From Bilabrum cf. latius (Eukaryota): DNA of 64,000 bases. Positions 1 to 63,626 of the stretch are shown here, piece after piece. Both the position numbers and the translations under genes were made by a program. The stretch is taken from positions 186,001-250,000 of the forward strand of contig OZ237751.1 of assembly GCA_965178125.1 (NCBI GenBank). Reading direction: 5' to 3'. How positions within the stretch are numbered: position 1 is the stretch's first letter; the number at the start of each line of letters is the position of its first letter. The notes beneath the pieces are model-generated. The model did not search any database. It was not told the origin of the DNA and saw only the letters and a program-made list of their open reading frames with translations.

Positions 1-3000
1 GGTCTGGCCGCGTACTCTCACGGAGATCCGGGCCTCAGGGAGGTGGCGGTGCAGGAGGTCGCTCTGGCGGAAGCGGTCAGGCGAGCGGGGCCGGGCGGAT
101 TCTCCGCTGGGGGCGGTGGGGGCCCCTAGAGCCAGTCGTAGCAGGGAGGCATCCAGGGCCGTGATGGAGTTGCATCCCCCCAGGACCTATCCGCGAGGGG
201 GGCGGCCGAAGCGGCTGCGCTGGAGCGGACGCGGGCCCACCGCGAGGCATTGTTCGGCAGCGGAGCCGAACCCGGCACCCCGGGTCAGGGGGGCCCCGGC
301 GCATCGACCCCGCGCAAGCAGCGGTCGATGGCGCTGTCCCCCGAGGCGGTCAAGACCCGCATGCTGGACCAGGTGCAGCAGGCCGGCTTCGCGGCCGAGC
401 ACGCTGGCTGGCGACCCCCCCACGTGGGTGTGCAGCTGGAGCACGCGGAGGCCCAGGCATCAGACAGGGCGGGAGCGCCGGGCATGTCACCCGCCGCTGT
501 GGCCCTGTACTGCTACCGCACGGCGGCGCGTGCGCTGGCCCTCCGGCTGCTCACTCTGGAGCTGCTGGCCGTGTCGGCGGGGGCGCCCGGCTCCCTTCTG
601 TCCAACCGCGGCGAGGAGCTCAGCGCGGACCACGAGCTGATCGAGCGCGTGATCGATGCGTCGGGGAGGGGCGGAAGGGGAGACATCCCGGGCGGGGCAG
701 CGGGCAACGTGGGCGCCGTGGCCATCTGCCGGTACATCTGCTAGAGCGCCACGGAGTCGGCGGTGCGAGGCGCGGCGCGGCTCACCGAGGCTGCCGCGAG
801 GGCCGGGGCACAGGGGGGAGATGGGCCAGGGTCCGGCGATGCCGCCGAGCCGGGGGCCGCGTACGCTTCTCCGCTCAAATCTGCCGCCGTGTCGTAGGCT
901 GTGCTGGAGGCGCGCTAGCAGGCTGTGCGGGAGGGTGCGGGCGCGGGGACAGCCGCCGCACCCGGTGGATCGTTTGGCGCGGCGATGGGGAAGGGGCTCT
1001 TCCGCCCTTTTTCGCAATCCTCCATAGGCACGGACTCGTCAGGAGGCAGCGGGCAGCCGGGCGCGTTGCCCGGCGTGCCCCAGCCGCTGCGCATGGCCTT
1101 CGCGCGCGCCGTCGTGGAGTGCCTCTCTGTGACACACGCACCCGAGGCGGAGACGGCTATGGGGGACGCGGCCGCGACCGTCGGGCTCCGGCTGGCTGCC
1201 TTCCGACGGATGCATGACGCGGGAACGGCCGTCCGGCTGTGCCCAGGAGGGCTCGCCGGGTGGCTGGGAGCAGACCGGGCAGCCGAGGCGCTGGCTGCCG
1301 CTGGCAGGGGAAGCGGTACCGGGGGTGGGGGCGTGTCGCCGCCGGGGGCCTACCTGCAGGCCGCCCTTGCGAACGCGAAGCGGCTGAACGTGCTGCCCAC
1401 CACTGCTCTCATGGCTGCGGCAGATGCGGCGCTGGACCGCAGCTCCAATGCACTCGCGAGCGGTGGGACCCGCAGCAAGCAGAGCCAGGTGGAGACGAGC
1501 GAGGGCGTGGCGGACGAGCTCGACGGGGCCGCGGCTCCCTACGGCGATTCCTTCCTCTTCGACGTGGAGGCGGCCGCGGCGCGGCTGGGTCTGCGGAGGC
1601 AGTGGCGGGCCATCCGTCAGAGGAGGTCAGCCCGCTGGGGCATGGACAACGCCAAGGCCGTGGTGATGCTGCGGCGGGCCGCTCGCTCGCTGACCTCGGC
1701 GGGGGACGGGCCTGGCAGCCCGGTGAAGAAGAGCTGGGGCAGGGGAGCGAGGCCCGCAGCGGCTGGCGCATTCGCCGCCGCGAGAGGTGCCGCCTTGTCG
1801 TCGTCGTCAGCGTCGATGGCAGGCGCCGGCGGCCGCGTCAAGCTCGTGTTTGGCGGTCCCCGGAGCCTCTCCGAAGAGGACGAGGCGCAGCTGGTGCAGG
1901 ACTACCTGGTGGCCTCCGCGGCCGGGTGGGGCCCTCTCCCGCCGGACAATCAGGCGGCGTGCGGCATCGCCGAAGTCGCCGGGGCCCTGCGGCTCGCCCG
2001 CGCAGAGGAGCAGAAGAGGGTGAGGGAGAGGCAGGCGCGCCTCGGGGCCAGGTGGGGGGCGCGCACAGGGCAGCAGAGAGGCATGCTTGAGAACGGCACC
2101 GGGACCGCGGTAGAGGGCGACGGCGAGGACGGCGAGGACGAGGAGGACGAGGACGGTTCGAGCCTGCCGGAGGACCTGGCGCAGCTGGTGCCTGCCGTGG
2201 CGGCGGCACACGAAGCCGCCGAGGAGGAGAGAGACCAGCTGCAGGCGCTGTGGGCCATCGCCGGGTTCAACTGCGTGGCTTCCATCTCGGAGGTGCAGCT
2301 GGACCTGTGCTGCTCCTGGCGCGGGTTCCTAGAGAAAACGATGGGCTTCACCCTTCCGCGCACCCCGCAGGCCGTCTCTTGCCTCAAAGCCCTGCGCACC
2401 AACCAGCTGCAGCTTCCTCTGTACAGCCTGTCGCACAAGACGCCCTACTTCGTGGCGCTCGCGCTCGTGGCTAGGCTGCGGCAGGCTGACCTGGGCGACT
2501 CGATCGTGCTGCAGGCGGCCGTGCACCAGGCCCGGCTGCTCTCCGCTAGCCTGCTAGGGCAGTTCTACGGGGCAGTGCGTGTGCCCTCGAGGAGACACAA
2601 GGGCTCCAGGGAGGCCAGGAGGAAGGCGGACAAGGAGAGCGAGGAATATGCGAGAGCGGGGCTGGCGGCCGACTAGGGCAACGGAGAAGCGGCCGCCGAT
2701 GGGCTGGAGATCCCCATGAGTCCGCCCATGGGCGCGCAGGCAAGTCCTCACAGCGACGACGACTTCCGACCCGAGACCCCTATGCACGCCGCGAGCGAGG
2801 TCGAGCTGGCCGGGCTGAGCACCCTGCACAACGTGATGGAGTCGTTCGGGTCGGCCGAGGTGGCCCGTCTGCTGCTCGCGGTGGTGGGCTCCGTCAAGAA
2901 CGTGCGGGCGGTGCTCGGGGGCGAGAGCCAGAGGGTCGTGCGGGCCTTTTTGGCCCTGCGAGCCGCGGCGAAAGGGACCTCGCGGGCGTCGGGGAGGGGA

Positions 3001-6000
3001 GGCAGGCCGTCTGTGTCGGCCTCCTTGAATCCGGCCGGGGACAGCTCCGTGCTGGGCCAGGTGGCCGCGCAGGGGCGCGGGGATGGTCAGGTGGGAGGGC
3101 TGTCGGCGGCCGCAGCAGAGGACCAGCTGGCCGCCACGGTGGGCATGTCACGGTCGCTGCTGGCCACGGACTTGGTGGGCTCGCTGCTGTGCTCCGCGAG
3201 CGTTCTGGTGACGTTCATGCGGCGAAGGGTCTCCCGGCTGGAGCTGGAGGTGCGGCGCGTGAGGGCGCGCAGGGCCAAGGGCCTCCGGGAGGACGTGGTG
3301 GGGGACGTGGACGCTGCGTCTCACGCGGGTGTGAGCAGGCGCGACCCCCGCACCCCGCGCGTTGGTACACCCGCCGGACGGGGCCGCAGGGGCAGCCTCA
3401 TCGCCCAGTCCACCGCGGCTCGGGAGGCGCGGCAGGCCTCCGCCCAGCGGCAGGCAGTCCCCGTGTTCTCCCCAGGCCGCTCCCGCCCGGCTAGGGCGAG
3501 GGAACAGGCGAGACGAGACAGCACGGCGCAGTTCGCGGCCCGCAGTGACCCCGAGGAGCTGGCCGAAGAGAGGGAGGAGGAGCTGGCGAGCCCGCTGGGA
3601 GCCGCGCAAAAGCAGTGCAGGAGGATGGCGCTGGCAGCGCTCCCGCTCGCGTGCGCGTATGTGCGAGACGCCACCGCGCTGCTGCTGCCGTCATGGTCCG
3701 GGCACGGCGGGCTGGGCGCCGCGGTGTCCGGTACGGCGAGCACGAGCAAGCGCGCCTCCGGACGCGGTGCCTTCGCCGCCCGTGGCCAGGCCACCCGCGG
3801 TGTGCAGGACCTCCGCAGGATCATGGAGTCTGGGAGGCACCCGCTGCTGCTGGCGGCGGAGCGGCAGGCGCGGCAGGCCACGAGCCTCCTCAGCCTGTGC
3901 TGCGAGGCACTGGGCGATGCCGCCCTGTTCCTGCCCGTGCTCAAGCAGTTCGGGGTCATCCCGGCCCTGGTGAGCCTGGGCATGGCCTCGTGCGCGCAGG
4001 TGGCGACCATATTCGACCAGCACGAGTCGGCTTGGCGCGGTGTCTGGCCCGCCCTGGAGGCGGACAGGCGCCGCCGGAGGGAGCGGGAGCAGCGCATGCT
4101 GGACGAGGGCTCTTGGCGGGGCGTCGACTCGCCGCACTTCGAGCTCCCGCTGGCCGTGTCGGACAGCCACGAGGCAGCCGCCGTGCTCGCCGAGAAGCGC
4201 TCCGCCGGCGGCTGCCTGTACGTGGCCGAGGCGGAGACCAGGGCCGTGTCCGATGCCAGGGTGGAGACGGCGGAGCTGTGCGTGACGACTCTGCTGGGGC
4301 TGTCAAAGAGCAGCCGGGCCAGCCAGATGCTGCTCGCAGCACGAGCCGATGGGCTGCTCCTCGCCAATCCGCTGTTCGACCGCATGGAGAGCGTGATGCG
4401 GTCCAGGGGACAGGCCAACGCACTGGGACTCATCCGACCCCACCCCAAGAAGCACCAGGTGCACCGCGTGGACCCCGCGGCGGTAGACGCTAGGTTTGAC
4501 GGCGTCGGTTGGGGCCTCGGGCCCGCGGTGTTTCGGGGCTACGACGACCTGGGCCGCATCAACCCCGCCCACATGCTGTGGCTGCGTTGCCTGGACTTGG
4601 TTCACACGCTGGTGCGCAGGCTGGACCGATCCTACGAGATCGTGGCGCAGCACTCGAGGGCGGCGATCAAGGCGAGGGCGCGGCGGGCGAGGAGGGAAGA
4701 AGCGCGCAGGACCCGCAATTCGGCGGGTCATCGCGCGCGCTCCCCGTCGGAAGCACCGTCCCATGCCAGCGAGGACTCGGTGCGGGACGGTGACTTCGGG
4801 ACGGAGGCCTCGACGGGCATGAGCGACAGCAGGGCGCACAGATTCAGCGAGGAGCTTGAGAGGCACATCAGCGACCAGGCCGACGAGATCGCTGCGGTGG
4901 ACCCCTCCATCGCCAGGGCGGCCTTCTTGACCAGGCAGGAGCTCAATCAGTAGGAAGAGGCCGCCGGTGACGGATTCGGAGCCGATATTCGCCAGCGCGA
5001 GCGCGACGGCGGCTGGGGCAGCGGTGCACCCTCCCCACAGCCCTCGGGCGGCCCTCACGGGACCGAGGCCGGGGAGGGGATGGGCATCGCTGCCTTCCTG
5101 GGCATCGACGAGCCGGGCGCTTGGGACGGGGAGGGCGGCGGGAGTCCCACCGGGGGCAGCAGCCCCATGGCTTCCCCTAGAGCGGGGGGACCTCCCTCGA
5201 TGGTTCGGCAGGACAGTCTCGCGTACACGGAGCACGGCCAGCTGCTGGGCTCTCCTTCCGCAGGGCAGGGCGCTGCGGCACCGGCGACCCCGTGGGCCGC
5301 GGTAACGCCTGCCGGGGGTGCGGCCCTGCGGGCGTCGTAGCTGACAATGGACGTGCCGCGGGGCATAGGGAACAACAATGGCCTCTTCGGGGCCAACGGT
5401 GGCGTCAACTCCTGGCACGCGGCGGCGGGGGCTCCCACCCAGCCGGGAGGCGGCGGGCCGGATGCCCCGGTGGCCGTCGACTCGGCCGGCGGCCCAGCAG
5501 GCGCGCGGGCAGTGTACAAGGGGCGCCGCAGCCTGCAGCCCCGGGAGCTCCGCGTGTTTGAGATCGCGTAGCGGCTGTCCTCGCGGGCCAGCGAGGTCCT
5601 GTACGCCGTGCTGGACAGGTTCCAGGCGACTGCCGTGTCGGCTCTGTCCGGCCGGGTCATGACCCTGCAGGGGCTGCGGGAATCGGGCCAGGTGGCGCGC
5701 GTGGTGGCGCTGGCCCTCAGCGAGCGTCACGCCCAGATCTGGAGGCTGCGGTGCGCGGCACAGGCCGATCTCTCCGTGTCCTCTCAGGCAGCCGCCGGCG
5801 TGCCACCGAGCGAGCGGCAGCGGCCCGTCGACCTAGTCACGAGGTATTTGGAGGCGCTGCAGGGCACCGTGAGGGACTTTTCCGTGTGCCTGGGCAGCGG
5901 GAAGTCCAGAGCGGACTGGCAGGGGGCGCCCGCTGGGATGTAGGGCTCGCAGGCTGGTGCTCGCGACGACATGACTCTCTCGAGCGGGATCGACGGGGCG

Positions 6001-8850
6001 CGGCGGCCCTCGCTGGATCGGGCGCAGCTGGCCCAAGAGCTGGGCAAGGGGCCGGGGTCTGTCGCGGGCCGGCCGAGGCGGACTTCGAGCCTGGGCATGT
6101 CAGATTCTGTGGCGGGCGAGACCGAGAGCGCGCGGACCTCTGGCCTCGCGGCAACCGTGGGGCCGGGCAACACTGACGCGCAAACCGCGGTAGCGAATGA
6201 TAGCGGGGCGCTGAACCGTTGGAAGCTGGAGCAGTTCCACGGAGTGACCTTCGTGCCGGTGGATCCCGAGGAGAGGGAGGCCGGCAAGAAGCAGCGGCTG
6301 GCCGCGGGAGACGAGGCCATGCTGCTGGCGGGGGGCGGCGCGGCCGGCCTAGCCGCCGTCGGTGCCAACGCGATGGAGTCGGCCGCCCGGTCGCAGATGG
6401 GCAGCGGCACTCCGCAGAAGCAGAGAGGCGGCGCTGCCCGGGGCCAGGCACCCATGGATGGCGTGTCGCGCCCCAAGTCGTCGCTCGGCGGCGTGGCGTC
6501 GATCGCGAGACGGGGGTCCCGCAGCCGGTCCCGCCGCAAGCGGCGCAGGCAGATGACGGCCCTGGAGAAGATGGAAGCGGAACTCATCGCGCAGGGTCAG
6601 GGTGCTTATCTGGGTGCCGACGAGGAGATGGGACCCGGGGGCCTAGGGAGGGCGAGAGGCCTGGGGCTGGACGAGGACGAGGACGAGGGCAGCACGGGAG
6701 GTGGGGCGGGATAGACTGGGGACAGTGCCGGCGGGCTAGGCGCGCTGGGCGTAGAGCGCATGCCGTCGGTGGGCGCCGCGCTTGCCAGGGCGGAAGAGGA
6801 GATGGAGGACGAGATGTCCGTGTCGCTGCGCGTGTTCGATGCCTTCGTGCAGCGAGAGCTCGTGCCGGCCGTGCGGGAGGTGATGACAGCCTGCGTCGCC
6901 GCCACTGCAGTGAGGCTGGCACCGGCCCGCAAGGCCCACGCAAAGACGATCGTGATTAGATACAGGCAAGAGAAGGAGCGCGCCAAGGCGGCCTCCAACG
7001 CGCGCGACAGCCCCGGGCCGAGGGAGGCCCACAGGATGTCCAGCAACGGCAATTCCAGCCAGAGCCACGGGAGGCTCGATTCATCCTCACACGGAAGCAA
7101 GGGCAGGAGGGCTGGCAGCAGCTTGCGCAGCCCTACCAGCAGCGGCTCGCGGGGCCGCAGCCGCAGCCGAAGCCCATCCGCGCTCGGAGGCAGCGGGGGT
7201 CGGTTCCGTCGATCCGGTTCGCAGGACAGCCACGGCTCCCAGGACAGCACCAGGGCAGCTTCGGTTGGTGGCGATGCAGCCGGTGGCGGGCGCCGTGGCA
7301 AGGGCGGTGTCAGGCTGCAGGTGGGCGAGGAGGGCCTGCCGGCCGCGTTCGGCGGGGCGGGTGCGTACGAGGAGGCGGTGAAGGAAGCCGTGGTGCATGC
7401 CGACGCGGTGGCGCTGGCTGCCACGGACGCCCAGCAGGCGCAGGCTGCCATCGATCGCGGCCTCGACTTTGAGCCGGGGGCGGGCCTCCGCCGGGTGCTG
7501 CGCGCGGTGGGTCTTTCCGCCGCCACTGCCACAGCGGGCGAGCGCGACTGGCTGGTGGTGTCCCCCGGGCTGGGGCACCTGCTGCTGCTGCTCGAGTACT
7601 GTGTCGCGAGGGGCCAGGTGGCCGACATGTACACGGACAAGGTCGCGACAGGGGCGGGAGGGGCCGTGGTGGACGGTGCCGCGTCCACCTCGACCGCAGG
7701 CGCCGGTGGCGGGAATCCCATAGCGCAGGTGATCGCTCGGCGCGGCACGCACGGTGACTACGACGTGCGGCTTGACCTGGCGGGCGTGTCGGTGGGCGGG
7801 GGTGGGGGCGGGGCCGCCACTGCCTCTGGTTCCGCGACGGGAGGCACATCGGGGGCCAGCACGGTGGGCAGCGAGCTTGGCGGGAGCAGCACCAGCGTGG
7901 CCGTGCTGCTCCGGCCCCAGCTCCGGCAGCTGGCCCGTCTCACGCTCCTCCTGCTCACGCGGGCCGTGGAGTCGTTCGCCACTCTGGCTCCGCAGGACGT
8001 TGTGAGCATGTACGACCCAAAGGCGTACGAGTCGGCGGCTGCCGCGGTGCACCGCATTGACATGCAGATCAAGGTGAGTCGTGCGAGCGAGGCCCAGCAG
8101 AACGCTCTCAGGCAGAAGCGCAAGAGGGAAGAAGAGAAGCTCTGGAGGCTGACGGACGGCGCCGCGAGGGCGGGTCAGTTCCAGGTGACTCCGCAGGCTC
8201 AGAGGCAGTATCAGGAGCAGCTGAGGCACGTGGCGGAGGCGCTCCGAAAATCCGTGGGGGACGCCGGCATGGCGCTGCATGCGATCGAGTCGGGAGAAGG
8301 CAGGGCGCGCGCCAGTGGTGGATCTGTGGGCAGCTTCAGCCGAGGCGGCGGCGGCGGTTTCTCAACGGGCGGGCGCTCCGGCGGACTGGCGTCCGGGCTG
8401 TCGGGGGCGCTGGGCTCTGGCGCCGGGAGGGGCGCCACGGGCGTCTCCGGCGGGGGCTAGTCGGCTCGGTCTTAGCTGCATCGCGCCACCGCCGCGCAGC
8501 AGCAGACGCAGCGGCTGGGTTACGTGGCGAGCGACCCGCTGTCCGTGGCTCGATTCGTGGCGTTCTGCAGGCGGGTGCTCCTGCACCGCGCTGGCATGCC
8601 GGCGCAGGTGGGCGGGGCCCGGCGGCTGGAGATCGATGAGGCAAACCGGATCGTGCCGCAGGGCGCAGGCCGGGAGCCGGGCAAAGAGGCGGGGGCGGAG
8701 GGCGGCAGGAGGCAGGGGTCGAGGTCGCCTAGGAGGTCACAGAGCCGCGGGAGGAGGGGCGTGGTGTCGAGGGCGGCCCTGCGGGCGGGCAATCTTCAGC
8801 TGCAGCGCGGGGTGATGAGCGGCCGGATGATGAGTCAGAGGGGCTTCTGA
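1..8850 (+). CDS. NUP188: Nucleoporin Nup188-like protein, 5'-truncated by the window edge; 13 in-frame TAG read as sense
   Basis: ORF pieces starting at 250, 925, 2716, 5080, 5347, 5608, 5971, 6760 and 8524 share one frame that is open from base 1. They are separated only by TAG (127, 139, 742, 895, 916, 2674, 4951, 5338, 5569, 5941, 6712, 8458, 8473) and end at TGA 8848-8850. Segments YGDSFLFDVEAAAARLG, FNCVASISEVQLDLCCSWRGFLE and AHMLWLRCLDLVHTLVRRL resemble Nup188 C-terminal helical motifs as I recall them. Confidence 0.6.
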
Positions 8851-9143
8851 TGGGCTTCCGTGGGGGTGTGACGTATTGATCGGATCGGATCTGCCCTCAA
8901 TGGCCCAACTCGGGAAGATAATATAGACTCTAGAATGAACATGGAACGCAAGTATCGAAACTCTCCTTTCTCTTGAGCGCTATTGTGCTTGTGAAGGCTT
9001 CCGGCTCAGCATGGACACCGCAGGGGAAACGCGCTTGGGTTATTGTCCAGTGCACCCCAGGAGCGCCGAACCTTCTGCGAACAGTCGGATCGTGGCGAAC
9101 AGATCCGGGGGATATACGCAGGATCTGGCCAGAACTGGGCATC

Positions 9144-12100
9144 ATGGTAGACGCTTTGGCAAAGCATTACCTGTTTCTTGTGAGGTATGCTCGAATTTAG
9201 CTAGTTAAGGCAGCGCTTGTTACTGCTACACCCGCCGCCGCGCAGGATCGACCAATTCCACCTCGGTACTCCCTAAATTCGTCCAACGCTTCGCAGGCCC
9301 TCTAGGAGCAGCTAGGACAGTATGTTGTTGGGCTTAAACCTGAAGCCCTCTCGCTGTCCGTCATGTCCGGCCAAGTTAGACTCGTTGACCTTGAGGTCCG
9401 GCCCGAGGCTCTGGATGGACTTGGATTGCCAGTCAAGGTAGTGTCAGGATCGATAGGCGCCATCGAGATCAACATAGACTCTTATTTTGCGTTAGCATCA
9501 ACTCCAATTCGAGTTGTGGTGAAGGATATATTCCTTTTGGTGAAGAAAGCCGTCCTGACACCAGACGAGATGGAGCGAAGGTCAAAGCAAGCTAAAATTG
9601 GGAATATCAAGCAAGCTTCAGTTCTCTGGAAGCAAGAGCGCGCAAGAGAGATTTCGAAGAAGTCTAGCAAAGGGGGTGACGCGGATGAAGCCATGCTTCC
9701 GGGCGGGATAGTCGGTCAGATCCTTGCAAACCTCTCCATTTCTGTGGAGAATTTCCACTTGCGGTATGAAGACGAGGATTCGAGCACTGCTGGAGGATTC
9801 GCCGCTGGGATCACGTTCAGCAGCTTCAGCAGCTCTCGCGCGAAACGAACCGCGGCCGAGAAGTCGGTCGAGATCGAGCGGCGCAACGCGGAGCTCGCCG
9901 CTCTGAGCGTCTACCTCGACCCCATGCAGACACCAGCAAGCAGCCTGGCCGGATTGAAGGGAGTTCCAAGGAGCCGCGCATTTCTCGCGTAGATCCACGG
10001 CGCCACAGGTGCCGGTGCACCGGCCGCGGCCCCCCGGCACAGCTACGTGCTGGAGCCCACCTCGGCTCACCTTGGGCTCGTGCTCAACCCAACCAAGCAC
10101 CACGGATATCCCAGCGTGGGCGCGTACCTCCGGGTGGATCGGCTGGGGATGGGCCTCGAACAGAGGCACATGCAGAGCTTGCTGTGCGCCCAGAGCTGGT
10201 ATGCCACCCGGCGGTACCGCCCGCTGCAGCGGCCGCGAGCGGGCCGGAGTGCGCGCGCCTGGTGGTGGTACGCCGTGCATTCCACCGTCGGGCAGACCTC
10301 GAAGGCGAACGCAGACGGAAACATTGGCGACGGCGGCGACAGGAGGTGGTTCTTCGGCCACAAGTGCAGCCGCATCACCGGTCTGAACAAGCGCAGGAAG
10401 CGCTACATTGAGCTGTACAAGGCGCACATTCGCAGGGAAGAGGAGGACCTGAGGAAGGGCAAGCCGGGCGAGCACCCGCCGCCCAAGGAAGAAGTAAAGG
10501 AGCTGGAATCGCTCGAGCTGCAGTTTTCCGTGCGGCAAGCTGTTCTGTTTAGGATCATGGCATCAAAGTACCTGGATGCAGAGATGGAGGCGAAGGAATC
10601 TGCAGAGAAGCAGCTGCAGGCCAAGGGGAAGGGTTCCATTGGCTCGTTCATGGGCTTCTCTGGGCCCAGCAAGGCGGATGAGGCGCGGATCCGAGCCATG
10701 GAGAGAGCCACCGCGGCCCGAGTGGGCCAGTCTCTCATCGCTGGGATCGACCTCCAGGCCGTGGACGACGCGTCCACGCTGTCGGCAGAGTACGAGAAGA
10801 TGAGGGTCGAGGTCAGTCTTGGCGAAGCCACGCTGGAGCTCAAGAAACAAGGGGCCCTCCCTGCGCCTGAGCTCCCACGCCGCAGCAGCGCCAGTGGGTC
10901 CGGCGGCCTTGGCAGGAAGCTGTCGTCCCGCAGGTCGGTTCTGGACCAGGCGCTGGAGCGGCAGGGAACGGCAGGAAGAGGCGCCTCGGAATCAAAGTCG
11001 AGCGGAGCCGCTGCGGGGAGAGAAGACGACCTCCCGTACGTCCTGCGTGCCTCAATCGGCGGTCGATTTGCGTTCGTGCAGAGGCCGAGCAGCTGGGCAA
11101 TGGAGCTGGCTCTGGACGATGCCAGGGTCTTGGACGGGTGCACCAGCGGGACCAAGTTCCCTACTGTGCTGGCCCCAACGGGCACCGACTTTGAGTCTCA
11201 GCCGACGGCCAGCCGACTGCTCGAGATCATGCCAGATGCGGCCCCGCCCGACCTTGCGGCAGACCCGCAGCTTGCCTTGGTGCTGGGCGGCGACGTGCCG
11301 GAGATGCACGAGCGGACAGGTGAGGAGGAGAGGGAGCTGGTGGCCCTCCGGGGGGAGCTATCCACCCTGACGATTCTTGGGCCGGCGATTGGTGCCAGCT
11401 CTGGGACGGGAACTGCAGCAGCCGGGGCTAGAAGGGGTGGTGGTGGCGGCCGCCGCCCGTTCGGCCTGGTCCGCATCGAGCAGCACCCGCTCGAGATGCA
11501 CGTAGGCCAGTCAAAGCCTAAGCCGCGGGAAGACATCGACTTCAGAGTATCTGTAGGCATCTTGCCGTGCGAGGCCGTGCTGGCCACCCCGCTGATCGAG
11601 GCAGTTGGGGTGTTCTTCTCTCGGCCCGTGGCTGCCGCAATGTCCAACTCCTTCTCTTCCGAGCTGTCGGCCTCCCTGGATGCCATCAATCAGTCCGCGC
11701 AGCAGGATCTGTACGCTATCATGGCGAGCAAGCCCACGATCGATGTGCGGATGCTTGTAGGAGCGTCCCATGTGATGTGCCCCGACAGGTGCGACACGCT
11801 CGGCGCTCCGCTGCTTGTGGCAGAGCTGGGCGAGCTGTGGCTCCTCTCTCGCGGCCAAAGGCGGGCAGAGGGACAGGAAGAAATGGATGTCACCGAGGCA
11901 GACGTGCGGCGAATCGCGGCGGAATCAGAGGCGGGAAGGCACCGGGACCATGCGAGCGAGGCTGCAGCCTCAGGGGCGGGAGCTGGCGGCAGTGGGCGTG
12001 ATGGTGGTGGCAGCGAGCAGGAAGCATCAGGGGGCGGGGCCTGGGTCGTGGGGGACCCCGACTCGTCCTATCGAGTGGAGGACACCATCGAGACCCGCAG

Positions 12101-40449: not shown

Positions 40450-40475
40450 GAAGAACAAAGTCGTTTCTAACACAG

Positions 40476-50817: not shown

Positions 50818-53800
50818 CGCGCGCGGCCTGGGGTCAATCCTCCGCCCCTGCTCGACAACACCGCCACCCACGTGCAGCAGTTCCGCCGCATGTCGCGCGC
50901 TTGCCTCCATGCTGCGCCGGGCCTTTCTAGCCGACCCGCTGCCCTCCAGCCAGCCCAGCTGTGCCTCCACCGCAGCCTCGTGCAGCTCCCCAGCAAGCAC
51001 CTCTGCGCCCTCCAGCCCAGTGCCACCTGTACCCCCATCTCCATCTCCATCTCCATCACGCCCACGCCCTGCAAGCGCTCCCCTCTGCAGCCCCGGGCTC
51101 GGTATGTCGTACCCCCGGTTGAGGTACGGCCGAGGGTCCGCCGCCACCACGCTCCACACGTGCATGGTGGTGCCCACCGTCCCAGCCGCGAATCTCTGCT
51201 GCTCCCTGTCGTGCATCCACGAGCCGCTGCGGCCAGCATATGCCTCCCGAGCCAGCAGCGCCAGCAAATTCTCATTAAACTCAAACGCGTGCGGCAGCTG
51301 CCTGCCCATCTGCCAGGCGCAGTCCAGCAGCTGCAGGATAATGGGTGCCCTCTGAGAGTCGCCTGACTTGCTCCTCACGTGCCCGCACCCGATCCCGTGC
51401 CTGCGGGCCAGCTGGTGCCCCCAAGCCCTAAACTCCCGATCGATGACCTCCATGAACCCCACCACGGTGCGGCAGTAAGGATCCACCAGCACCTGCGCGA
51501 GAGCGCTCAGCTGCGCGGTCCGGTCCCAGCCATCAGAGCACGACACCTTGCAGGGGTGCCCCGCCGCGAGTGCTTCCGCCACCCGCACAGACCCAGCCAG
51601 CACCGACGACACGCACTGCATCCACGCCGTCGAGCGCGCGATGGGAAGCATGTCCCTGAGCATCCTGCTGGCCTCCGCCTGCGACACTAGGTCCCGGCCC
51701 CGCGCATCCAGCTCCACCAGGGAGTGCCCTCCTGCTGCGACTGTGCCTCTGTCGCTGTCCCTGTCCTTGCCGTGCGACTCGCCTGCTCCGCTAGCTGTCC
51801 CGCTGCTGCTGCGGTCGTCGTTGTCGTCGTCGCCGGACTGCAACGCTGCAGAGGACGAGGACGCCTTGCCGCGGGCCGTGTTCGCGCCGCTAGCCCCTCC
51901 ATCACCAACCCCTTCACCGCCAACACCGCCCGCTGCATTTCCTGCGCTGCTGCTGCCGGTGCGGTGCTCTTGTACCCTGGCCTGCAGGCGCTTGGCCCAG
52001 ATTGCGGCCCGCAGACTCGCCGACCCGCCGACCGGGTCCCTTCTCCCGCGCACGCCTCCCCTGCCGAGCCCGACCGTGGATGAGGAGTGGATGAGGCCCA
52101 GCATCGGGTCGGCAGGGGAACTTGCAGCTCGGAGCATCGATGGGACAGACAAGGGACTCGCGCCGGCTGCTTGACCCCCGGCTGCTCCCAGGTCACCGAC
52201 GTCGTCACTGCCCCATGTCACGATGCGCCCAGCACGGGGAGAGTCCAGCTCGCCGCCCATCCTTGCCTCTTGCCCCATGCCTGCGTCACTGTCCTCGTCC
52301 TCATCGTATTCTTCTGGAATCGCGCCATCCATCTCGCCCTGCCCGCGCCCGGCACTGCCACCCCGTGTGGAGGCATGAAGCCCCGTGCGCTCCCCACGCA
52401 GCAGCGCAGTCCGGAGGCCGCTGAGGGCCTTGCGAACAGCGTGAATGTTCGCAATATCAAGAAAATGCAGCTTGGCCGCGCCCCCGCAGTATCTCTCGAA
52501 CGCCTCAAAGCCGCCGCCATTCGCGCGGTTAGCCTATGCGTTGAGAAGGGGCCGGGCATCGAACAGGTTCATCACTGGGGCCGACATGGAGCCCGTGGAT
52601 TGCCCGAGCATGAAGTGCGATGAGCGCGCTGGGACAGCCGAAGCAATCCCGCCGCGGGCTGGCGCTATCCCACCGGCGGCGACAGGGCCGCCCAGCCCTC
52701 CGCTGCCGCTGCCCCCTGGCCCGGCCAGCACCGGCCCGGTCCCGCGGTCCCTGTCGCTGCCCTATGCGGGGCCCCCGTCCGACCACCGCCTCGCCTGGCT
52801 ACTGTCCCTCTCCCTCAGCGCAGGCCGATAAGCCTCCATGAACAGCGCCTCGTCGTGAGCTGACACCGCGCCCATGATCCCGGATCTGGCCTGCGCGCTC
52901 CTCAGCAGCGCAACGCCCCTGTGGAACCAAGCGACCACGGGCAGCCGGTGCCGAGCACGGTATGCCGCTGCCCCCCGCAACATTTCCGGGGTCGCAGCCG
53001 CAGGCACGATGTACTCGGCAGGGTACGACTCGCACAGCTAGAAGCCCTCGTTGGTGGAGGAGTCCACACGCCAAGGGCACCCAGGCAGAGTCACACCACC
53101 TCCATCGCACAAGACCTGCTTGGCCGGCTCCCGACCCAAGAGCCGCGCAAAATGCCTACGCACGTCGTAGAGCTTCCAGCCCAGAGCAGTGCTGCTCGGC
53201 GGCTTCGGTATCGTGGCAACCAGACCCGCACCTGCTCCCGCGTGGTACTGCTGCAGCCTCCAGAACTCGAGCGCAAACAGGGGCGGGTCATGCTTCGCGA
53301 AGGCCACCTGCTCCACCACTCGCTCCAGCATCCCCGCGTCCACGGGAGCTGGCTCCCGCAGCGCCCGAAGCAGCGGCCTCCCCCTGAGTGCAGCCTCCGC
53401 CCACACCTCGGCTTGCCCGTCAGGCACCTCGGCTGTGGAGCCTCCCAGTGCGCCCCCGCCGCTCTGCACCGTCACGGTGTGCCGCACGCTCTCCTGCCCC
53501 GCTGTGCTCACGGGGTCGAGCAGTAGCGCGAGAATGGTTGCGGATGCTGCCACAGTGGCATGCATTGAACGGGACCTGCGCAAACCATCCTCAGTCCCAC
53601 GGTCAGGCTCGCGACCAGGACCAGCGGCGGCAAACATGCCGTCTGCAAGCGCCGCTGTGTCTGCGCAAGTGTGGATCAGCCTGAGGAGAACCTCCCCGTG
53701 ATCCGACTAGATATCCTGCAAGCCATGATGATGCGCACCGCGACCGGTGGACTGGATCAACATGGACTGCACTTGGCACGGGCCCCCAACCGCGAACGAC

Positions 53801-56800
53801 GTGTCAAGCCGAAGCGACCTAAGATCCGTGCAGATGACGTGCAGCAGTGCGCGAGCAGGCGGCGCATCCGCAGGGCGTGCGCTATGCCTGTGCTTGGCCC
53901 ACTCCAACGTGGTCGGCAGGCGCTCCCCGTGGTCTCCCGCAGACGTCCCTAGCCCGGTGCCGCCAGCACCCGCGGCACGAGCAACTGCCGCGGCCTCGCG
54001 AGCGTGCTGTCCCAGTACCGCAATGGGGACTGCGCTCAGCTGGGCCGGAGGCGGCGCAACCACAACTTGAGGGTTGTCGCTGCCGACATCCCTTGCGCCT
54101 GCAGAGCTTCTCTGGTCAAGGCTCGCGTCATCGCCGGAGGATGCACCTGACCCAAATCGGCTGCGCTGCTTGCCTCCCTGGCTGCGGGGTCTGCTTGCAG
54201 CGGAGGAACCAGAGGCTGACTTGCCGACGGTTGATGAACCCTCACCGGCAGCCCCGCCAGCCCCCGACTCGGTCCGCAGCACGGCCACAGGGGCGGCTTC
54301 CACCATGGCAGGGGACTGTTCTGACGTGCTGCCTTTGCCCGTGCCGCCCAGCCCTTGAGCGCGGGCGGCGTGCTTAGCCTCGAGCTTGGTCGGGTCTGGC
54401 ATGATCTTGCTGGCTGCCACGCGGGCGATCGCGGTCAGCGGCAGCGTGATGCCTTCGTCTCGCCTGGCGGGACCCGTGTGCCCCTCGAAGCTGGCGCGAA
54501 GATGCACCCAGCTGCGCTCGTTCAGCGAGGCACCCACATTGGCTCCGCTCCCTGCAGCCTCACCGTCTCGAGCGAACGCTCGAGCCGCGTGCTGCCTCTC
54601 CCTGTACAGCGCAGGGTGAGCATGACTCTCCCTGCACAGCCTACGGATAGTCTCATCGATGGTGGCGCGCTGCTGCGTCTCCTCTGAACCGGGGATGTGG
54701 TCCACGGAGCTGCTGCGGCTGCGGGCCATCTCCCTCCCGGACCGCGTGGAATCGCCCTCGCCTGCATCTAATTGTTTGCTCTTCTTGCGTTTCTTGTCCT
54801 TCTTGGGCTTCTTGGGCTTCTTCCTAGCGGTGGGGCTGCTCCTGCCGCTGCGTGCTCCTGCTGAAATCCCTTGGCTCTGCTATTTGGCTGCTTGTGGAAC
54901 AGATGCGCCGCCTGCAATGCCTTGGCTAACAGGCTCCATCGCTCCCCGAATCGATCGCAAACCCGCGGCCTACTGTCCTGCACGCGGGTCATTCTACTGG
55001 GATAGTTTCCATTCGACTCTTTCTCTCCTAGAGAGCTGCTACTGCTTAGCCTGTCCGCCCGATTCGCCCTGTCCCGGTCTCAGGGTCGGTTCACTATCCT
55101 CGCTGGAATGTGACACGAACACTCTCAACCGGTCGTGTAGGCCGATACTGTGGGTCCGATCGAGACTGCTACTGCTGCTGGTGCGGCTGCCAGTCAATGA
55201 AACGAGATGCTCCTTCGGGCTAGTGTCACCTGCATCTGGTGCGTCCTCCCCGCCGGCCTGGTGGACATCAATGCCCTCAACGAGTCGCAGCCTGCACGCC
55301 GGGTCCAGCACCTCCTCCACTAGAGCAGCGTACGGCAAAAAGTGCAGAGCATACGTGGTCACGAATAGCACCCCTGGCCTTCCTCGACTCGTCTCTCGCA
55401 CGCCGTGAGCAACGTACAGCGGCACTTCGCCATGCTGAAGCCTGCGGGCGAGAAGCCACCAGCCCTGCAGCACGAACCTGGAGAGAGCGGAGGGCAGCTC
55501 GGGCAGCCACCGCAACGCAGCGATGCACCCACTAGAGCTTCTGGGAGCATCCACCGCGCTGCTGCCGCTGCTGCTGTTATTGCTGCTACCGCCATCCCTG
55601 CCGGTGGCTCCTCTCGCAGGGGCAGGGCTCAGCTCCCTCACCGCACGGAGAGCCTCTGCCCTAGGAGGCACCCGCAGCACGGACGCAAACGGGGGCAGCC
55701 CCGCCTCTCGCACCCACGCGGGAAATACTCGGCCGATCCTATGCCCCGACGCGTCCAAGCCAGCCACCATAGTCCCAATGCTGCTGGCCCCCGCCGCCAG
55801 CATCGAGGGATCCACGGTCAGGTCCCAATCGGTCGACTCGAGCCTTGCCCTGGTGCTGAGGAGCATGGCAGTGGAAGACGGACCGCCCTCTCTCCATGCA
55901 TCGAATGCTTGCGCGCCCTCTCCCGCGCCAGCCTTGATCTGGGACCCAGGCACCATCGACCGCGAACTGCCTGGCCCAAGTAGCGCCGACACTCCCGCTG
56001 AAGTCGATCGCAGCACGCCCTCCTAGACCTACAGTGGTGCCAGTGGGGAACCCCTCCCGCTCGCCAAGTCGGCATCCGAGAGCTGTCTGTGTCTCACGAG
56101 GGGCGAAGGCTTGTGCACTGCCGGCGATCCGCTCCCGCCCAGCACGGCAGCTGTCCTGGCCCTGCTGCTCTCCCTGCCCCTCTTGAGGAGGCTTGGACCC
56201 TCCTCCGCGTCCGCCCCACCGGATGCCATCCTGCCTGCTGACACGCCGCTCCATCCCCTCTGCCTGGCGTTGATACGACGCGGGCGGGGTGGCGTGCAAT
56301 CCACAGCACTGCTGCTGTTCGCAGCTGGGTGAGCTCCGTGCCAGTGAGGTGCTGTCGGCAGCGGGAGCGTGCTCACTGGTGCTTCGGACTCTGACGGCAC
56401 GTCTGCTTCTCCTCTACCATCTGTCGCCCTAGCCGACTGCCCCAGTCCATTGTCTGCCCCGTACTCATCTTCTGACTCGTCCTCGCTCTCTTCGTGGCCC
56501 CGAGTTGCCTCGAGCGCGATGGCCCAGAACGGCAGCACGCGCCCGTCCAATCGAGCCGGCACCTCGACATGTGCAAGCTCACCGTCGCCCGCCCCCGAGC
56601 CACTTTTCCCCACCAGCCTCCCGCTGTGACTGTCCATTGGGCCCATCCCCTCTGGGTCGGTGTCCCTCGCGGCCAGCAGCATGGACAGGTCATCGGGCGC
56701 GTCCGACTGCTCGAGTTCCCTGGGAGTGGCCAAGAGAGCTAGGGCGGGGCACACGCTGCTGGGCGCTCGACGGTGGAGAAGCCTGTCTTTCCAGCCGATG

Positions 56801-58290
56801 CGGCGGCCGCTGCGCCCTGCCCGTCTGCCTGTCCCCACAGCCCCACTCTGGCCCGCCCCACCCGGATCATCCGGATCTAGGTCCCGTGCCCCGCCCCACG
56901 ATGCGCTCGAGGACGAAGCTCCCCTAAGAAGCTGCCTGACGCCACCAGGGCGCGCTTGCCTATCGTCAAAGAACGGCGCCCGGACGATCCAGCCGTGCTG
57001 AAGCCACTGGTGCCGCGTTGCCAGTTCATCGGTGGTACCTCCCCCGCTTCCCACTCCCTCTGCTGCATGTACGTCCTGGCCTCCCAACGGGCTACCGTAC
57101 ATGCTCCACCCGTCCGCTTTACCCCCGCTGCCTCTAGCACCGACAGGCCCCGACTAAACCCCGGGTGCCCCGTCGCCCGGCCCACCCCCGGACCCCCCCT
57201 CCCCACCACCACCGCTCATGCCTCCCCCAGCGACCCCATCGCTGGCTCCATGCAAACCACCCTGTGCCGCAAGCGGAGATATTATGCTCACCACCGAGTC
57301 GCCCCGCACCAAGTACTGCCCCTGCGCGCCCCTACCGCCCATGGGACTACCGTGCATCGGCCCGCCCAGCAGCGGCGCGGCACCGGATGGTTGCCCCGCG
57401 CCGCTTTGCGAGCCGGTAGTATGGGAGGGAGGCAGTGAGGGCGGGCGCGGCCTGGGAGTCGGGTCCGCGGGCCCAGCTGCGACCAGGGGTGGCATGGATT
57501 CGGAGCCAATATCGCTCGCCCGGCGGGCCCTCCACCCGAGTGCCCAGGCGACCCTCCAGCGCTGCAGCCGAGGCGCTGCCCTGGCCCTGGCGGCCTGCCG
57601 CGCGGCGGATGTGCGCCGCATGCCCGCCATGCCCAGCCTCTCACAGGTTTCTAGCTGTCCCAAGGCTGCCTCCGCCGCGATGAGCGTCATGTCTTCCTCG
57701 GTCGCAACCACCCTGCGCATGACCTCGTCCTGCAGCCGGAGCGCTTCCTGAGCCGCCTCCCTGTGGCGCTCCGCAAGCTCCGGTTCCTTTCGCGCGTCTT
57801 GGCCGCGCTTGAGCCTCTCTGAAAGGGTATTTCGCCTATCCAAAGTGTCATACAGCTCTTGTTTCAGCACTTTTGCCATGTGCAGATCCGGCGCGATACG
57901 CCCAAGCAGCGGCCCCAGCAACGAGGCAGCCAGCTCGTGGGCAACTGCGCGCTGGTACGCATCCCATCCCTGCAGTGATCCTCGTAGTTGTTGCAAAAAT
58001 GGTTGGTCGAAGGCTGCAGCCTGTTGCAACGTAGAATCTAGCATTCGCCTCAATGCTCCTATCGCCTTGTCAAACGCCATGAAAGCTTCCCTGTACCTAA
58101 TTACGACGGACACTGCCTCATCTACTTGTAATCTTAACTTCTTCATTTTATCTTTCAATGCTCGAAACGTCGCACTTGTATCGGTGGCAGACTGGGAAAA
58201 CATGGCATGACCCATTCGGCGCCATACATCCCATTTCCCTTGTCTCGAGAGATTTGCTGCGGCTGCAGGGTCTCCATCATACTAAGACAT
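50773..58290 (-). CDS. Myotubularin-family phosphoinositide 3-phosphatase (~2,505 aa) with N-terminal BAR-like helical domain and PH-GRAM-like segment; 12 in-frame TAG
   Basis: WRVDSSTNEGF*LCESYPAEYIVP, YRARHRLPVVAW, LLRSAQ, FDARPLLNA*ANRANGGGFE, FLDIANIHAVRKAL, catalytic SCSDGWDRTAQLSALAQVLVDPYCRT, RAPIILQLLDCAWQMGRQLPHAFEFNE. Eight ORF pieces lie in one frame from ATG 58290 to TGA 50773. Confidence 0.9.
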
Positions 58291-58453
58291 TAAACCTTTA
58301 AGATAGAGTGGGACAATACACGGGACACAGCTTCACAGGAACCGCAATACAAGATTTTTCGGAACTCCGGGTAGCAGCGAACCTTCTCTTGCAGGCATGA
58401 AGGTTCGCCAGACGTGTGTGACATGGGAGACTTTCTGTTCGCCCAGTTTAGCC

Positions 58454-60246
58454 ATGATGCGGGCCCTTAGAGCAGTTCGAGGAGTGGCCCGGGCTACAAG
58501 AAGCCGTATTAGCTGCTCTGCTTCCGTTGGGCTGCGGTTTGCTTCTCAAGATGTCCGATCACTGGCTGCTGACCTGAACAGGTCTCTGGAAGACTCCGAT
58601 CCGGCCCTGTTCGACCTGATCGAGAAAGAGAAACAACGACAGCGAACATCACTAGTCTTGATTGCATCCGAGGTAAGAACTTGACTCCTATTTCTGTCCT
58701 CAATACTCCTATTCGTAGATGCCTGCAGCGACAGTTGCTCCGCTGTTCCTGCGCAACCCGCACCTTCTTGGATTCAGCCGTGCTGGCGTGTAGCAAGCAC
58801 ACTTTGGCCCTACCATGCGTCTAGTATGTATTGTGGTGGTCATCTGCGCAGCCCCTAGCATTCGAATGATGCCTCCGTTCCGGCCCCTTGCATCGCTCGC
58901 AGAATTTCACTTCGGCGTCTGTGCTGGACGCGCTGGGCTCCGTCATGAGCAACAAATACAGCGAAGGATACCCCGGGGCGCGCTACTACGGTGGAAACGA
59001 GCACATCGACGCGGTCGAGCGCTTGTGCCAGCAGCGAGCGCTTGAGGCGTTCGGTCTGTCCGAGGACGAGTGGCACGTGAACGTGCAGAGCCTGTCTGGC
59101 TCCCCCGCAAACTTTGCCGTGTACACGGCCCTGCTGCAGCCGCACGACCGCATCTTGTCTCTGGACCTGCCCTCTGGGGGGCACTTGTCGCACGGGTACC
59201 AGACCGACAAGAAGAAGGTGAGCGCGGTGTCTGCGTACTTCGAGACGCTCCCCTACAAGCTCGACCCCGCCACCGGGCTGATCAACTACGACGAGGCGGA
59301 CCAGCTGGCCAGGGCGTTCCGCCCCAAGCTGGTGGTGGCTGGTGCCTCTGCCTACGCTCGCCTGATCGACTACGAGAAGATGAGGCAGATCGCCGACCTG
59401 AGCGGGGCAGTGCTGCTGGCAGACATGGCGCACATCTCGGGGCTGGTGGCCGCGGGCTGCATCCCCTCTCCCTTCGACCACTGCGACGTGGTGATGACCA
59501 CCACACACAAGAGCCTAAGGGGGCCCAGAGGTGCCCTCATCTTCAGCAGGAAGGGGGTCAAGTCCGTCAGCAAGAAGGGGGTCAAGACCATGTACGACTT
59601 CGGACCCAAGATCGACTCTGCCGTGTTCCCTGGCCTGCAGGGGGGCCCGCACAACCACACGATCGCGGCTCTTGCAACCGCCCTAAAGCAGGCGTCTTCC
59701 GCCGAGTTCAAGCAGTACCAGGATGCCGTCATGGGGAACAGCAGGGCCCTCTGCGAGGAGCTCATGGGTCTGGGGTACGACATGGTGAGCGGGGGGACCA
59801 GCAACCACCTGTGTCTGGTGGACCTCAGGTCCAAGGGGATCGACGGGGCCAGGGCGGAGCGGGTGCTGGAGTTGAGCGGGCTGGTGACCAACAAGAACAC
59901 CGTGCCGGGCGACACGTCCGCGATCGTGCCCGGGGGTATCCGGCTGGGGGCGCCCGCCATGACCTCGAGGGGGCTCGGTGAGGAGGACTTCAGGCAGGTG
60001 GGCCGGTTCTTCGATAGGGCCGTGCAGCTCGCAGTGGAGGCCAAGGAAGAGGTGGCAAAGGGGTACACGGGCAAGGGCAAGCCCAAGCTCAAGGACTTCT
60101 TCGCGGGCTTGACAGCCGAGGGCGAGGAGGCGCTGCAGGTGGCGCCGCGGATCGCCGAGCTTCGCGCCGAGGTGGCCGAGTTTTCCAGCGGGTTCCCCAC
60201 TGTGGGCTTCGAAGAGGCTAGCATGAAGTACCCCGAGAGGCAGTGA
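58454..60246 (+). CDS. SHMT: Serine hydroxymethyltransferase, probably mitochondrial, 520 aa; join(58454..58672,58903..60246)
   Basis: LIASE|NFTS across a GTAAGA..ctcgCAG intron, [27 protein letters not shown]-lysine motif [20 protein letters not shown]; Arg/Ala/Ser-rich presequence; TGA stop; no TAG. Confidence 0.97.
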
Positions 60247-61230: not shown

Positions 61231-63626
61231 TCAATCCACACCAAACCGGAAGAAATCGCTGCCCTGGTCCGGAGCCCCACCGGGAACTGCTGGCCCGCCG
61301 CCCACCATTTCACTAGCACCCATGGACACGGCTGCACCCGACGACGAAGATGCCGCTGTCTACCCAGCCCCCATGCCAGCCCCCATGCCAGCCCCTCCGC
61401 CGGCATCCATCCACGCAGGACGTAGGGACACCCCCCGGGGTCCTACACTGTCCCCCCGTTTGCCATACCCCTTCATGGGGACAGCCCCACCTACCGGCTG
61501 AGCCGCAGACGCCCCCACGCCCCCCTACCTAGCGAAAAAATCAGCCATGGATTCCTCCGCCTCGTCCTCGTCCTCGTCCTCGTCGCCGTCTCCCATCCCA
61601 TCGCCGTGCCCCGTAGCCATGCCGGCCTCGATTTCATCGCCCGTGGGATCAAGGTATTTCTCTACCATCCATCGGGCTGCCAGCGCAGCTCCGTGCATGG
61701 AATCCCCGGGGCTACTAGAGGCCGGGCTGTCCGCCAGATCCCCGAGGTGCTCCAGCCCCCTGGACTCTAGCACCACTGGGACGAGCCCGGGGCGGTGCTT
61801 GCAGATCGTGTGCAGAAAAGCGACGCTCTGGTACACCACCTGGACCCTCTTTGCCAGCACCCTGCGCACCACCACGCCAACGAACCCAGGGAGCTCTGCC
61901 ACAGCGTCAAAGTACTTGCCGGGGGGATGCACCACGAACCTGCCACGGGCGTCCACCATAGCCCCCTCTGCCACTTTGTCCAGCTTCGAGCAGCCCACCC
62001 CAAAGGAAGTCTCCTTTGCCCACCCAGCCACAGGGGATGCCTCCTTTGTGTCGCGGGCGAAGGCCACCTGCGTCAGGCAGATGAGAGACTCGACAGCCAG
62101 AGCAAAGGTTCCGTCAGCCATGTCCAGCAGGTGTGGGAGCACCCCTCCCTCCACGAAGAATTTCGCGTGCTGCTCCCCCCTGCCGGGAGGAGACACCAGG
62201 TTGGCCACCACCCACATGGCCTGCTGCTTCAGCGCAATCACATCCACCGGGGCGGACGCACCGCCCACCAGTCCCCGGGCATTCACACTGGAGCTGCCCG
62301 GCCCCTGAGGCACCGAGTGGTCCAGGCTTGGCACGGGCCCGGCTTGCCCCGCGCCTATTGCGCTCCTCGACGACTCCTCGGCTGCCTTCGCGGCGGGGTG
62401 TTCCCCGGTTAGGATGCCCCTTACGGAGCGCATGATGGAAGGAACGGCCGCTACTGCCTCCGTGGGCGCATGGTGGCTCGTGACCCCGCAGCTGTTCCCC
62501 ACAACGGTCAGCAGCGGTGCTGCCATCCTGGACGTCCTTGCGTGAAAGAGCGCATTCCCGGCCAGCCTGAGCCCCCCTTTGTTGATGAACTGCTTAAGGA
62601 TATTGTCATGCACCTGCACGATCATTGCCAGCAGCTGGGCCGCTTCGGCGCCTATGGTTTCGTCCACTGGCCCAGAGGCATGGGGGCCAGCACCGCTGCC
62701 ACCCTCCTTGCTCTCGCTTGCACCAGCACCAGCACCAGCACCGGCACCCTGTTTGAAGGCAACTCCCGCCATGGCAGCCCGCTCTGCTGCGGCCTTGCTC
62801 ATGGTGACTCCGTCAGAGCCGCTCGCGCCCGCCTAGTGCGCGGCCGCCGGTCTCAGCCAGTAGAGGCAGAGGGCCACCACATCCAGCTCGAGGATGGTGC
62901 GAGGCTCTAGCCCCGGTCCCCGCATCATGTTGGTCAGGGCCCAGAGGCACGTGCTGGCGAGAGAGATGGGCCGCTGGTAGGCGCTTCGCATGATGGCGGC
63001 GAATGCGCCTTGGGCCAGAAGAACGTCCCGCACTCGATCGAGAGAGGCGGCCATGGTGCCGAGCGCGTGCACGGCGTACTCTGCCATTACCTTGTGCTCA
63101 CCCTCGGCCAGGCGGATGATTTCGGGAGATACTTGCATGACGTAGTCCACGTGTTCGTCTGTGCCCGTGGCAAGCGTGTCCACGATCCAGACGGCTTCGA
63201 GGCAGTGGGCATCCAGAACCGAACTCCGCTGCTCGCCCCTGCCGCCCCGAATGAAGAACCGCAGAGCTTCGATCAGATTGAGGTCCATGACAAACTCCAA
63301 TGGCGGGTCATCGTCTTGCGTTATGGCGCGTCGGATCATCTGCAGCCCTTCCAACTGGTGCCTGGCCTTGGGGCCCCGGATTGCCTTGCGAGCTGCCTCC
63401 CGTAAGGCGTCTGGAGATATCGCGATGACTGGCTCAGGCCCTCTGCAAGGAACAATTCTTGAATGAGTTTTCAAAATTGCGTGTTTACGTGGTGAGAGGA
63501 GGCTGTCTGGGAGATCGTGTATCCGGGAACGAGCAGCACTCACCGTCGTCGAGTTCGAACCAGCCTCTTTTCCCGCTATAATCGAACCCGCTGTATGCTT
63601 TTGCTAGAGCGTGCCTACGAATACAT
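61231..63626 (-). CDS. Importin-alpha-like ARM-repeat protein (~764 aa); complement(join(61231..63442,63544..63626)); 5 in-frame TAG
   Basis: Basic IBB-like exon 1 MYS*ARSSKSIQRVRL*REKRLVRTRRR; intron GTGAGT..ccttgCAG; ARM motifs LEAVWIVDTLATG, AEYAVHALGTMAA, CLWALTNMMRG, QQAMWVVANL; acidic tail, RPAWM, DFFRFGVD then TGA 61231. TAG at 63615, 63576, 62833, 61525 and 61360. Confidence 0.78.

Follow-up and report, generated by a model that had tools for sequence, protein, structure and literature searches.

We analysed a 64-kb stretch of contig OZ237751.1 (the window, by which we mean this whole stretch of DNA), in which eight genes are seen and the codon TAG recurs inside long reading frames. 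When TAG is treated as a sense codon for frame calling, seven very long frames are resolved across the whole window; with the standard set of stop codons, the same seven stretches split into many pieces. The eighth gene, encoding serine hydroxymethyltransferase (SHMT), contains no TAG. Guanine plus cytosine (GC) content is 57-73% across the window, in keeping with an earlier note on this DNA that had described a GC-rich genome in which UAG is a sense codon, most likely for glutamine (Gln, Q). The evidence set out below indicates that the window is very probably nuclear DNA from a eukaryote of high GC content in which UAG is translated as Gln.

The first of the seven frames occupies positions 1-8850 of the plus strand; it is open at its 5′ end, spans 2,949 codons to a TGA, and holds 13 in-frame TAG (at 127, 139, 742, 895, 916, 2674, 4951, 5338, 5569, 5941, 6712, 8458 and 8473). 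VPS13 follows on the same strand at 8973-28106, with 6,377 codons from stop to stop, a first ATG at 9144, 24 in-frame TAG and a terminal TGA. The remaining five frames lie on the minus strand, and each of these also ends in TGA. Two are tandem paralogues encoding a membrane protein, the first at 29760-32369 with six in-frame TAG (31427, 30344, 30185, 29843, 29801 and 29780), the second at 36843-39569 with five coding TAG (38648, 37559, 37400, 36926 and 36863) and two further TAG, at 39506 and 39455, in its leader. This leader is considered non-coding because it carries an 8-base indel relative to the leader of the first paralogue. A protein rich in coiled coil and low-complexity sequence is encoded at 40476-49127 (2,883 codons; TAG at 47768, 47378, 45242, 43955 and 43931), and a myotubularin-family phosphatase at 50773-58290 (2,505 codons; 12 in-frame TAG). 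The last, at 61231-63699, comprises 822 codons with the first ATG at codon 121; three of its TAG (62835, 61527 and 61362) come after that ATG and two (63663 and 63606) before it.

Names given to these genes in the earlier note held up in part. VPS13 and the myotubularin are confirmed by Pfam (PF12624 at 7e-46 and PF25036 at 5e-8 for the former; PF06602 at 6e-80 for the latter), and the myotubularin catalytic loop, C-S-D-G-W-D-R-T, is intact. No Pfam match supports the labels 'Nup188-like' (the frame at 1-8850), 'channel' (the paralogues), 'coiled coil' or 'ARM' (61231-63699). Matches of the paralogue product in the PDB are to acetylcholine-receptor chains and are non-significant (E 0.26); this membrane protein is possibly like a ligand-gated channel.

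In-frame TAG number 72 over the seven frames (13, 24, 6, 7, 5, 12 and 5, in the order given above), against 69 in the earlier note; the three additional ones are VPS13 9198 and the paralogue-leader TAG at 39506 and 39455. About 67 of the 72 are confidently coding, since 9198, 39506 and 39455 fall in a leader or candidate intron and 63663 and 63606 precede the first ATG. Across 17,760 in-frame codons, tallied from the seven frames plus SHMT exon 2, we found 72 TAG, and neither TAA nor an internal TGA occurs. Rates taken from the +1 and +2 frames of these stretches would give 90 TAG, 22 TAA and 213 TGA for that many codons, and the departure of TAA and TGA from these off-frame rates is far beyond chance. 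Each of the seven genes stays in one frame without a frameshift and closes with TGA, as had been claimed, and with SHMT included all eight gene ends are TGA: UGA terminates every gene seen and is never internal.

UAA is seen neither inside these genes nor at their ends. If the ratio of TAA to TAG tracked that of CAA to CAG (0.16 for the window, 0.5 for L001, an environmental relative described below), the window should hold 11.5 TAA and L001 8.0, and none is observed in either. Because roughly 19 TAA are thus expected and none is seen, UAA is not a Gln codon. It is also absent from the eight gene ends (0/8), although with GC at third codon positions of 0.70-0.85 eight genes are few for judging whether UAA serves as a stop.

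TAG codons lie inside conserved sequence that is evidently translated through. Alignments of the window VPS13 with that of Cafeteria and with other VPS13 proteins take in ten TAG positions, distributed between its N-terminal and C-terminal regions. Similarly, alignment of the myotubularin to MTMR2 and MTMR1 crosses TAG 53040 and TAG 52536 and reaches the intact catalytic loop; three TAG (53040, 52764 and 52536) fall within the phosphatase-domain region. For both proteins the TAG are located in aligned domain sequence rather than in insertions, and homology resumes in frame after them, which bears out, for these two Pfam-confirmed genes, the earlier statement that TAG fall inside conserved domains. 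Further, the listed pieces of contigs from runs X1, X5 and X7 show no differences from the window. The X1 contig is an independent one; that X5 and X7 are RNA is a guess, and they are not counted here as transcript evidence.

The same pattern recurs in an environmental relative. A HMMER search of the full library with VPS13 residues 4111-5310 as query returned metagenome fragments at 98%, 59-67% and 39% identity. A metagenome scan with a VPS13 piece found no relative, and a scan with an alignment found one locus, L001 (5,393 bases, 58% GC). L001 consists of one open VPS13 frame of 1,797 codons that contains 16 TAG, no TAA and no TGA, and it is 62% identical to the window VPS13 over 1,785 aligned columns. 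TAG occurs in 18 columns of this alignment, and in none of them do both sequences have it. Because no column is shared, TAG positions turn over as synonymous sites do and are not conserved read-through sites. Public gene calls on L001 (P0013, P0014, P0026 and P0029) start and stop exactly at its TAG. Standard-code calling fragments the genes, so that database proteins of this lineage exist only as pieces; until TAG is translated as Gln, there will be errors in the annotation, orthology and phylogenomics of the organism and of its relatives. With domains read on past TAG in the window and the pattern repeated in L001, the earlier claim that UAG is a sense codon stands, and we hold with high confidence that it is sense and most likely encodes Gln.

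The identity of the amino acid was addressed by aligning the VPS13 proteins of the window and L001, each TAG being entered as X, and deriving residue replacement rates from the rest of the alignment. At the 18 TAG columns the partner residues are Q (7), glutamate (Glu, E; 3), serine (Ser, S; 3), A (2), N, G and R (1 each). All seven Q partners are encoded by CAG, one transition from TAG, and all three E partners by GAG; TAG 22923, for example, pairs with GAG in L001, and TAG 27426 with TCG. Gln has the best log-likelihood of the 20 residues (Q -37.6, E -51.1, background -53.5, lysine (Lys, K) -54.4, S -56.5, leucine (Leu, L) -89.5), leading by 13.5 log-units over these 18 columns of VPS13 in one relative. 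Only 53% of ordinary Gln residues are conserved in the same alignment, so 7 of 18 is what would be expected of a Gln codon, and Gln makes up about 3% of residues overall. Tabulating the residues at TAG columns had been suggested as a check on the reassignment, and in this VPS13 pair Gln is the dominant one, with Leu at 0/18 and Glu at 3/18.

Two individual sites agree with this result. At TAG 21654, where homologues had been said to read Q, three of three do so (P0012 at 98% identity, P0016 at 39%, and Cafeteria P0008); in P0012 and P0016 the Q must come from a true CAG or CAA, because the public callers treated TAG as a stop. TAG 139 is CAG, by a T>C change, in a collinear relative from run X6 that is about 8-10% diverged; no change at TAG 127 appears among the 40 of 1,616 X6 differences listed. 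The neighbourhood of TAG is likewise that of a Gln codon. The sequence contexts cited earlier are present (QQQQQ-TAG at 43955, where TAG directly follows five CAG codons of the coiled-coil gene; TAG-CAG-CAG at 19242; CAG-TAG-CAG at 55041), and the reported association with CAG is borne out quantitatively: Gln adjoins 11 of 72 TAG (15.3%) and 117 of 750 Gln (15.6%), compared with 4-11% for other residues. The five TAG common to both paralogues are present too, but they do not amount to independent evidence; the paralogues are 97% identical in DNA, and the shared TAG are therefore duplicates. The share of UAG among Gln codons is about 9% for the window and about 22% for L001. Together, these observations describe UAG as an ordinary and rather rare synonym of CAG, scattered through coding sequence including conserved domains, whose positions differ between relatives by single T/C changes.

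Several results weigh against this reading, and they bear on whether UAG might be sense for Glu or for a one-step neighbour (Ser, Lys or Leu) instead of Gln, a proposition for which codes elsewhere offer precedent: in the cited passages of PMC11687900, UAR is Glu and UAG is Leu in other lineages. The 18 columns tabulated represent a single protein, VPS13, compared with a single relative; three of them pair with Glu (GAG) and three with Ser. TAG 29801 of the first paralogue is TTG (Leu) in the second, the one link to Leu. Human MTMR2 and MTMR1 have E at TAG 53040, and V or D at TAG 52536. VPS13 homologues at 24-30% identity mostly lack Q at TAG columns: Cafeteria has Q at two of ten (only TAG 13758 and TAG 21654), the others being T, S, A, V, V, R, P and A, and among four VPS13 homologues TAG 9303 faces T, N, N and N, TAG 9990 faces S, T and T, and TAG 27426 faces A, A, P and E. 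Finally, neither ARAGORN nor Rfam finds a transfer RNA (tRNA) of the type tRNA-Gln(CUA) in the window, where only tRNA-Arg(TCG) and tRNA-Lys(UUU) are called. Against Glu and the other candidates stand the 13.5 or more log-units by which E, K, S and L trail Q, the seven Q partners drawn from a residue of about 3% abundance, the unanimous Q at TAG 21654 and the CAG at TAG 139 in X6, and a rate of Gln neighbours that is equal for TAG and for Gln itself. We read the Glu partners, the TTG difference between the paralogues and the distant non-Q columns as unconserved columns and ordinary Gln/Glu exchange, which leaves the likelihood result standing, and we regard a meaning other than Gln as highly unlikely.

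UAG could also have a dual role, specifying Gln inside genes and stopping translation in some contexts, for example near the 3′ end. In the paralogues TAG stands 6, 13 and 27 codons ahead of the TGA, and in the 'ARM-like' frame one stands 42 codons ahead; gene ends number only eight, and the protein ends of the paralogues and the 'ARM-like' gene are predicted from the frames. Yet all eight genes have a TGA and none needs TAG as its stop, VPS13 and the myotubularin are conserved beyond their last TAG, and the 23 TAG in one VPS13 gene would demand near-complete read-through, so that a dual role appears unlikely. The proposal that TAG is not translated as such, being spliced or edited out, introduced by assembly errors or accumulated in pseudogenes, gains something from the GT-AG introns of this genome: SHMT has one, and the candidate in VPS13 would take out TAG 9198. 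Errors or decay would nonetheless yield TGA and TAA as well, and none of the 72 internal stops is of either kind; the frames are open for up to 6,377 codons with no shifts, the TAG lie within aligned domain sequence, the contig pieces from X1, X5 and X7 agree with the window at every position listed, and the relative at 62% identity has TAG at other sites of a frame that is otherwise conserved. Editing, splicing, errors or pseudogenes as the source of TAG are very unlikely, and we give them hardly any credence.

With UAG taken as Gln, the machinery might resemble that of other UAG-only lineages. By analogy with these, a tRNA-Gln(CUA), derived from tRNA-Gln(CUG) and one mutation away from it, would pair with UAG and not with UAA, and UAG would be recognised poorly or no longer by eRF1, through changes of its N domain in the region of the GTS, NIKS and YxCxxxF motifs; eRF1 is not among the genes of the window. 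For Iotanema, the cited part of PMC5304391 proposes this kind of mechanism, in which a CUA anticodon together with eRF1 changes accounts for decoding of UAG only. Iotanema eRF1 carries T32G, a change at a residue in contact with the third base of the stop codon.

SHMT, which was not among the genes of the earlier note, is of mitochondrial type and lies on the plus strand at 58397-60246 (Pfam PF00464, 2e-183), with its TGA at 60244-60246. Exon 1 extends to 58672, a GT-AG intron of 230 bases occupies 58673-58902, and exon 2 covers 58903-60246; splicing joins ...IASE to NFTS.... SHMT was compared with the PDB only, where its best matches are eukaryotic SHMT chains, those with names being labelled mitochondrial, and its N-terminal extension resembles a mitochondrial presequence. 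The SHMT and myotubularin genes are arranged head to head, with start codons about 100-160 bases apart. A minus-strand frame at 58509-60224 (seven TAG, ending in TAA) was rejected as a gene, being the antisense of SHMT.

VPS13 has a candidate GT-AG intron of 117 bases at 9180-9296, in frame and shortly 3′ of the start codon. Its excision would drop TAG 9198 and bring the Met near the conserved N-terminal motif; 23 of the 24 VPS13 TAG are downstream of it. A contig match from run X5 starts exactly at 9297, the preceding 62 letters being unmatched, and this edge is compatible with VPS13 splicing on the guess that X5 is an RNA run.

Both ARAGORN and Rfam detect tRNA-Arg(TCG) at 28401-28472 and tRNA-Lys(TTT) at 29282-29354, each on the plus strand, in the gap between the converging runs of plus- and minus-strand genes. 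ARAGORN made a third call at 6320-6410, with a two-base anticodon, which was rejected; it lies inside a coding frame and lacks Rfam support. The idea of a kinetoplastid-like polycistronic genome, with same-strand gene runs and tRNAs at the strand switch, was dropped because GT-AG introns are present and SHMT lies on the opposite strand within the minus-strand run.

The similarity between the tandem paralogues includes their leaders, and by sequence they are a recent tandem duplication. An Ala-Gly dipeptide run is much longer in the second copy than in the first. The 4.4-kb spacer separating them has lower GC (~57%) and contains a tandem repeat of about 156 bases (~35.8-36.8 kb) as well as repeats of about 52 bases of the gene 3′ end (36632-36791). 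Between the coiled-coil and myotubularin genes, a frame on the opposite strand at 49238-50536 (plus; 432 codons, one TAG, no Pfam match) may be a further gene. Short acidic repeats rich in GAG and GAC at ~2113-2157, 6651-6688 and 18486-18514 are matched by many unrelated contigs; most of the apparent long-range 'joints' fall at these repeats, with sides of 20-25 letters, and were read as low-complexity artefacts, not as rearrangements.

As to the organism, the best named match of the VPS13 N-terminus is Cafeteria roenbergensis at 30% identity and 147 bits, the other three reaching at most 73 bits, and the Cafeteria protein (P0008) aligns in nine segments along VPS13. Matches of the myotubularin are to sponges, a haptophyte, oomycetes, an ochrophyte and a fornicate at 35-43% identity; the first search for myotubularin homologues was dominated by low-complexity words and gave two hits among 7,999 candidates. 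No ciliates are among the named best hits in the VPS13 and myotubularin homologue searches, and the close relatives found are metagenome fragments only. Membership of the fornicates and its opposite would both be compatible with these sequence matches. Tentatively, and with slightly less than even confidence, we propose a lineage without a described variant code that is neither ciliate nor fornicate, maybe a deep-branching GC-rich heterotroph and a distant ally of bicosoecid stramenopiles, which reassigned UAG alone to Gln independently, kept UGA as a working stop, and passed this code to a clade comprising the organism of the window, X6 and L001. The suggested alliance with bicosoecids comes from Cafeteria being the one strong match to VPS13 that carries a name. 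Our literature search did not find nuclear UAG reassignment in a stramenopile or bicosoecid, with the proviso that supplementary tables may list further lineages, and broader searches on UAG reassignment returned known lineages only. The earlier guess of an independent, undescribed case outside the ciliates is plausible. If the proposal of a bicosoecid ally is true, the case would be the first reassignment of a nuclear stop codon among stramenopiles, with UAG captured in a genome very rich in GC.

Nuclear code changes are rare, and those in which UAG and UAA have different meanings are rarer still, confined to a handful of lineages in the account given in the cited passages of PMC11687900. A further case in a GC-rich genome and its diverged relatives bears on how UAG is captured without UAA, and offers a new system for finding the responsible tRNA and eRF1 changes. 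The passages cited from PMC11687900 name, as lineages with UAG alone reassigned to Gln, the fornicate Iotanema spirale, the ciliate Protocruzia tuzeti and two phyllopharyngean ciliate lineages. Iotanema matches the window in that UAG alone is reassigned, to Gln, and UAA is not sense, according to the cited parts of PMC5304391 and PMC9161772. It differs in that UAA is its dominant stop (PMC5304391, in the part cited), whereas here all eight genes end in TGA and UAA is seen neither as stop nor as sense; further differences are the GC content of the window, 57-73%, and its SHMT, which is of mitochondrial type and has an N-terminal extension. No sequence link to fornicates stands out; Aduncisulcus is one among many myotubularin matches, at about 38% identity.

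Protocruzia tuzeti and the two phyllopharyngean lineages likewise read UAG as Gln with UAA unchanged (PMC11687900, as cited). By contrast with ciliates, the 64 kb of the window carry several genes, giant ones among them, at very high GC, and lie in a contig of 50 kb from run X1. In ciliates, macronuclear DNA tends to be AT-rich, and the chromosomes of phyllopharyngeans are gene-sized; the ciliate code in which UAG alone becomes Gln is NCBI table 15. The more widespread codes in which UAR is Gln, listed in the cited passages of PMC11687900 for many ciliates, Hexamita, Streblomastix, ulvophycean algae and Amoeboaphelidium, share with the window the change from stop to Gln and the retention of UGA as terminator. 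Such codes, of the NCBI table 6 type, read UAA too, whereas here no TAA occurs in 17,760 + 1,797 codons where about 19 are expected. Codes in which UAG is Leu, described for the uncultured rhizarian exLh and some phyllopharyngeans (PMC11687900 and PMC5304391, in the passages cited), decouple UAG from UAA as here, but Leu is rejected for the window by its absence from the 18 columns and its log-likelihood of -89.5. Condylostoma, karyorelicts and Blastocrithidia, which have no dedicated stops, use UGA or all stops internally, and the 17,760 codons of the window contain neither TGA nor TAA. The type of code seen here is already known; the lineage that uses it is probably new to the list of those in which UAG alone has been reassigned.

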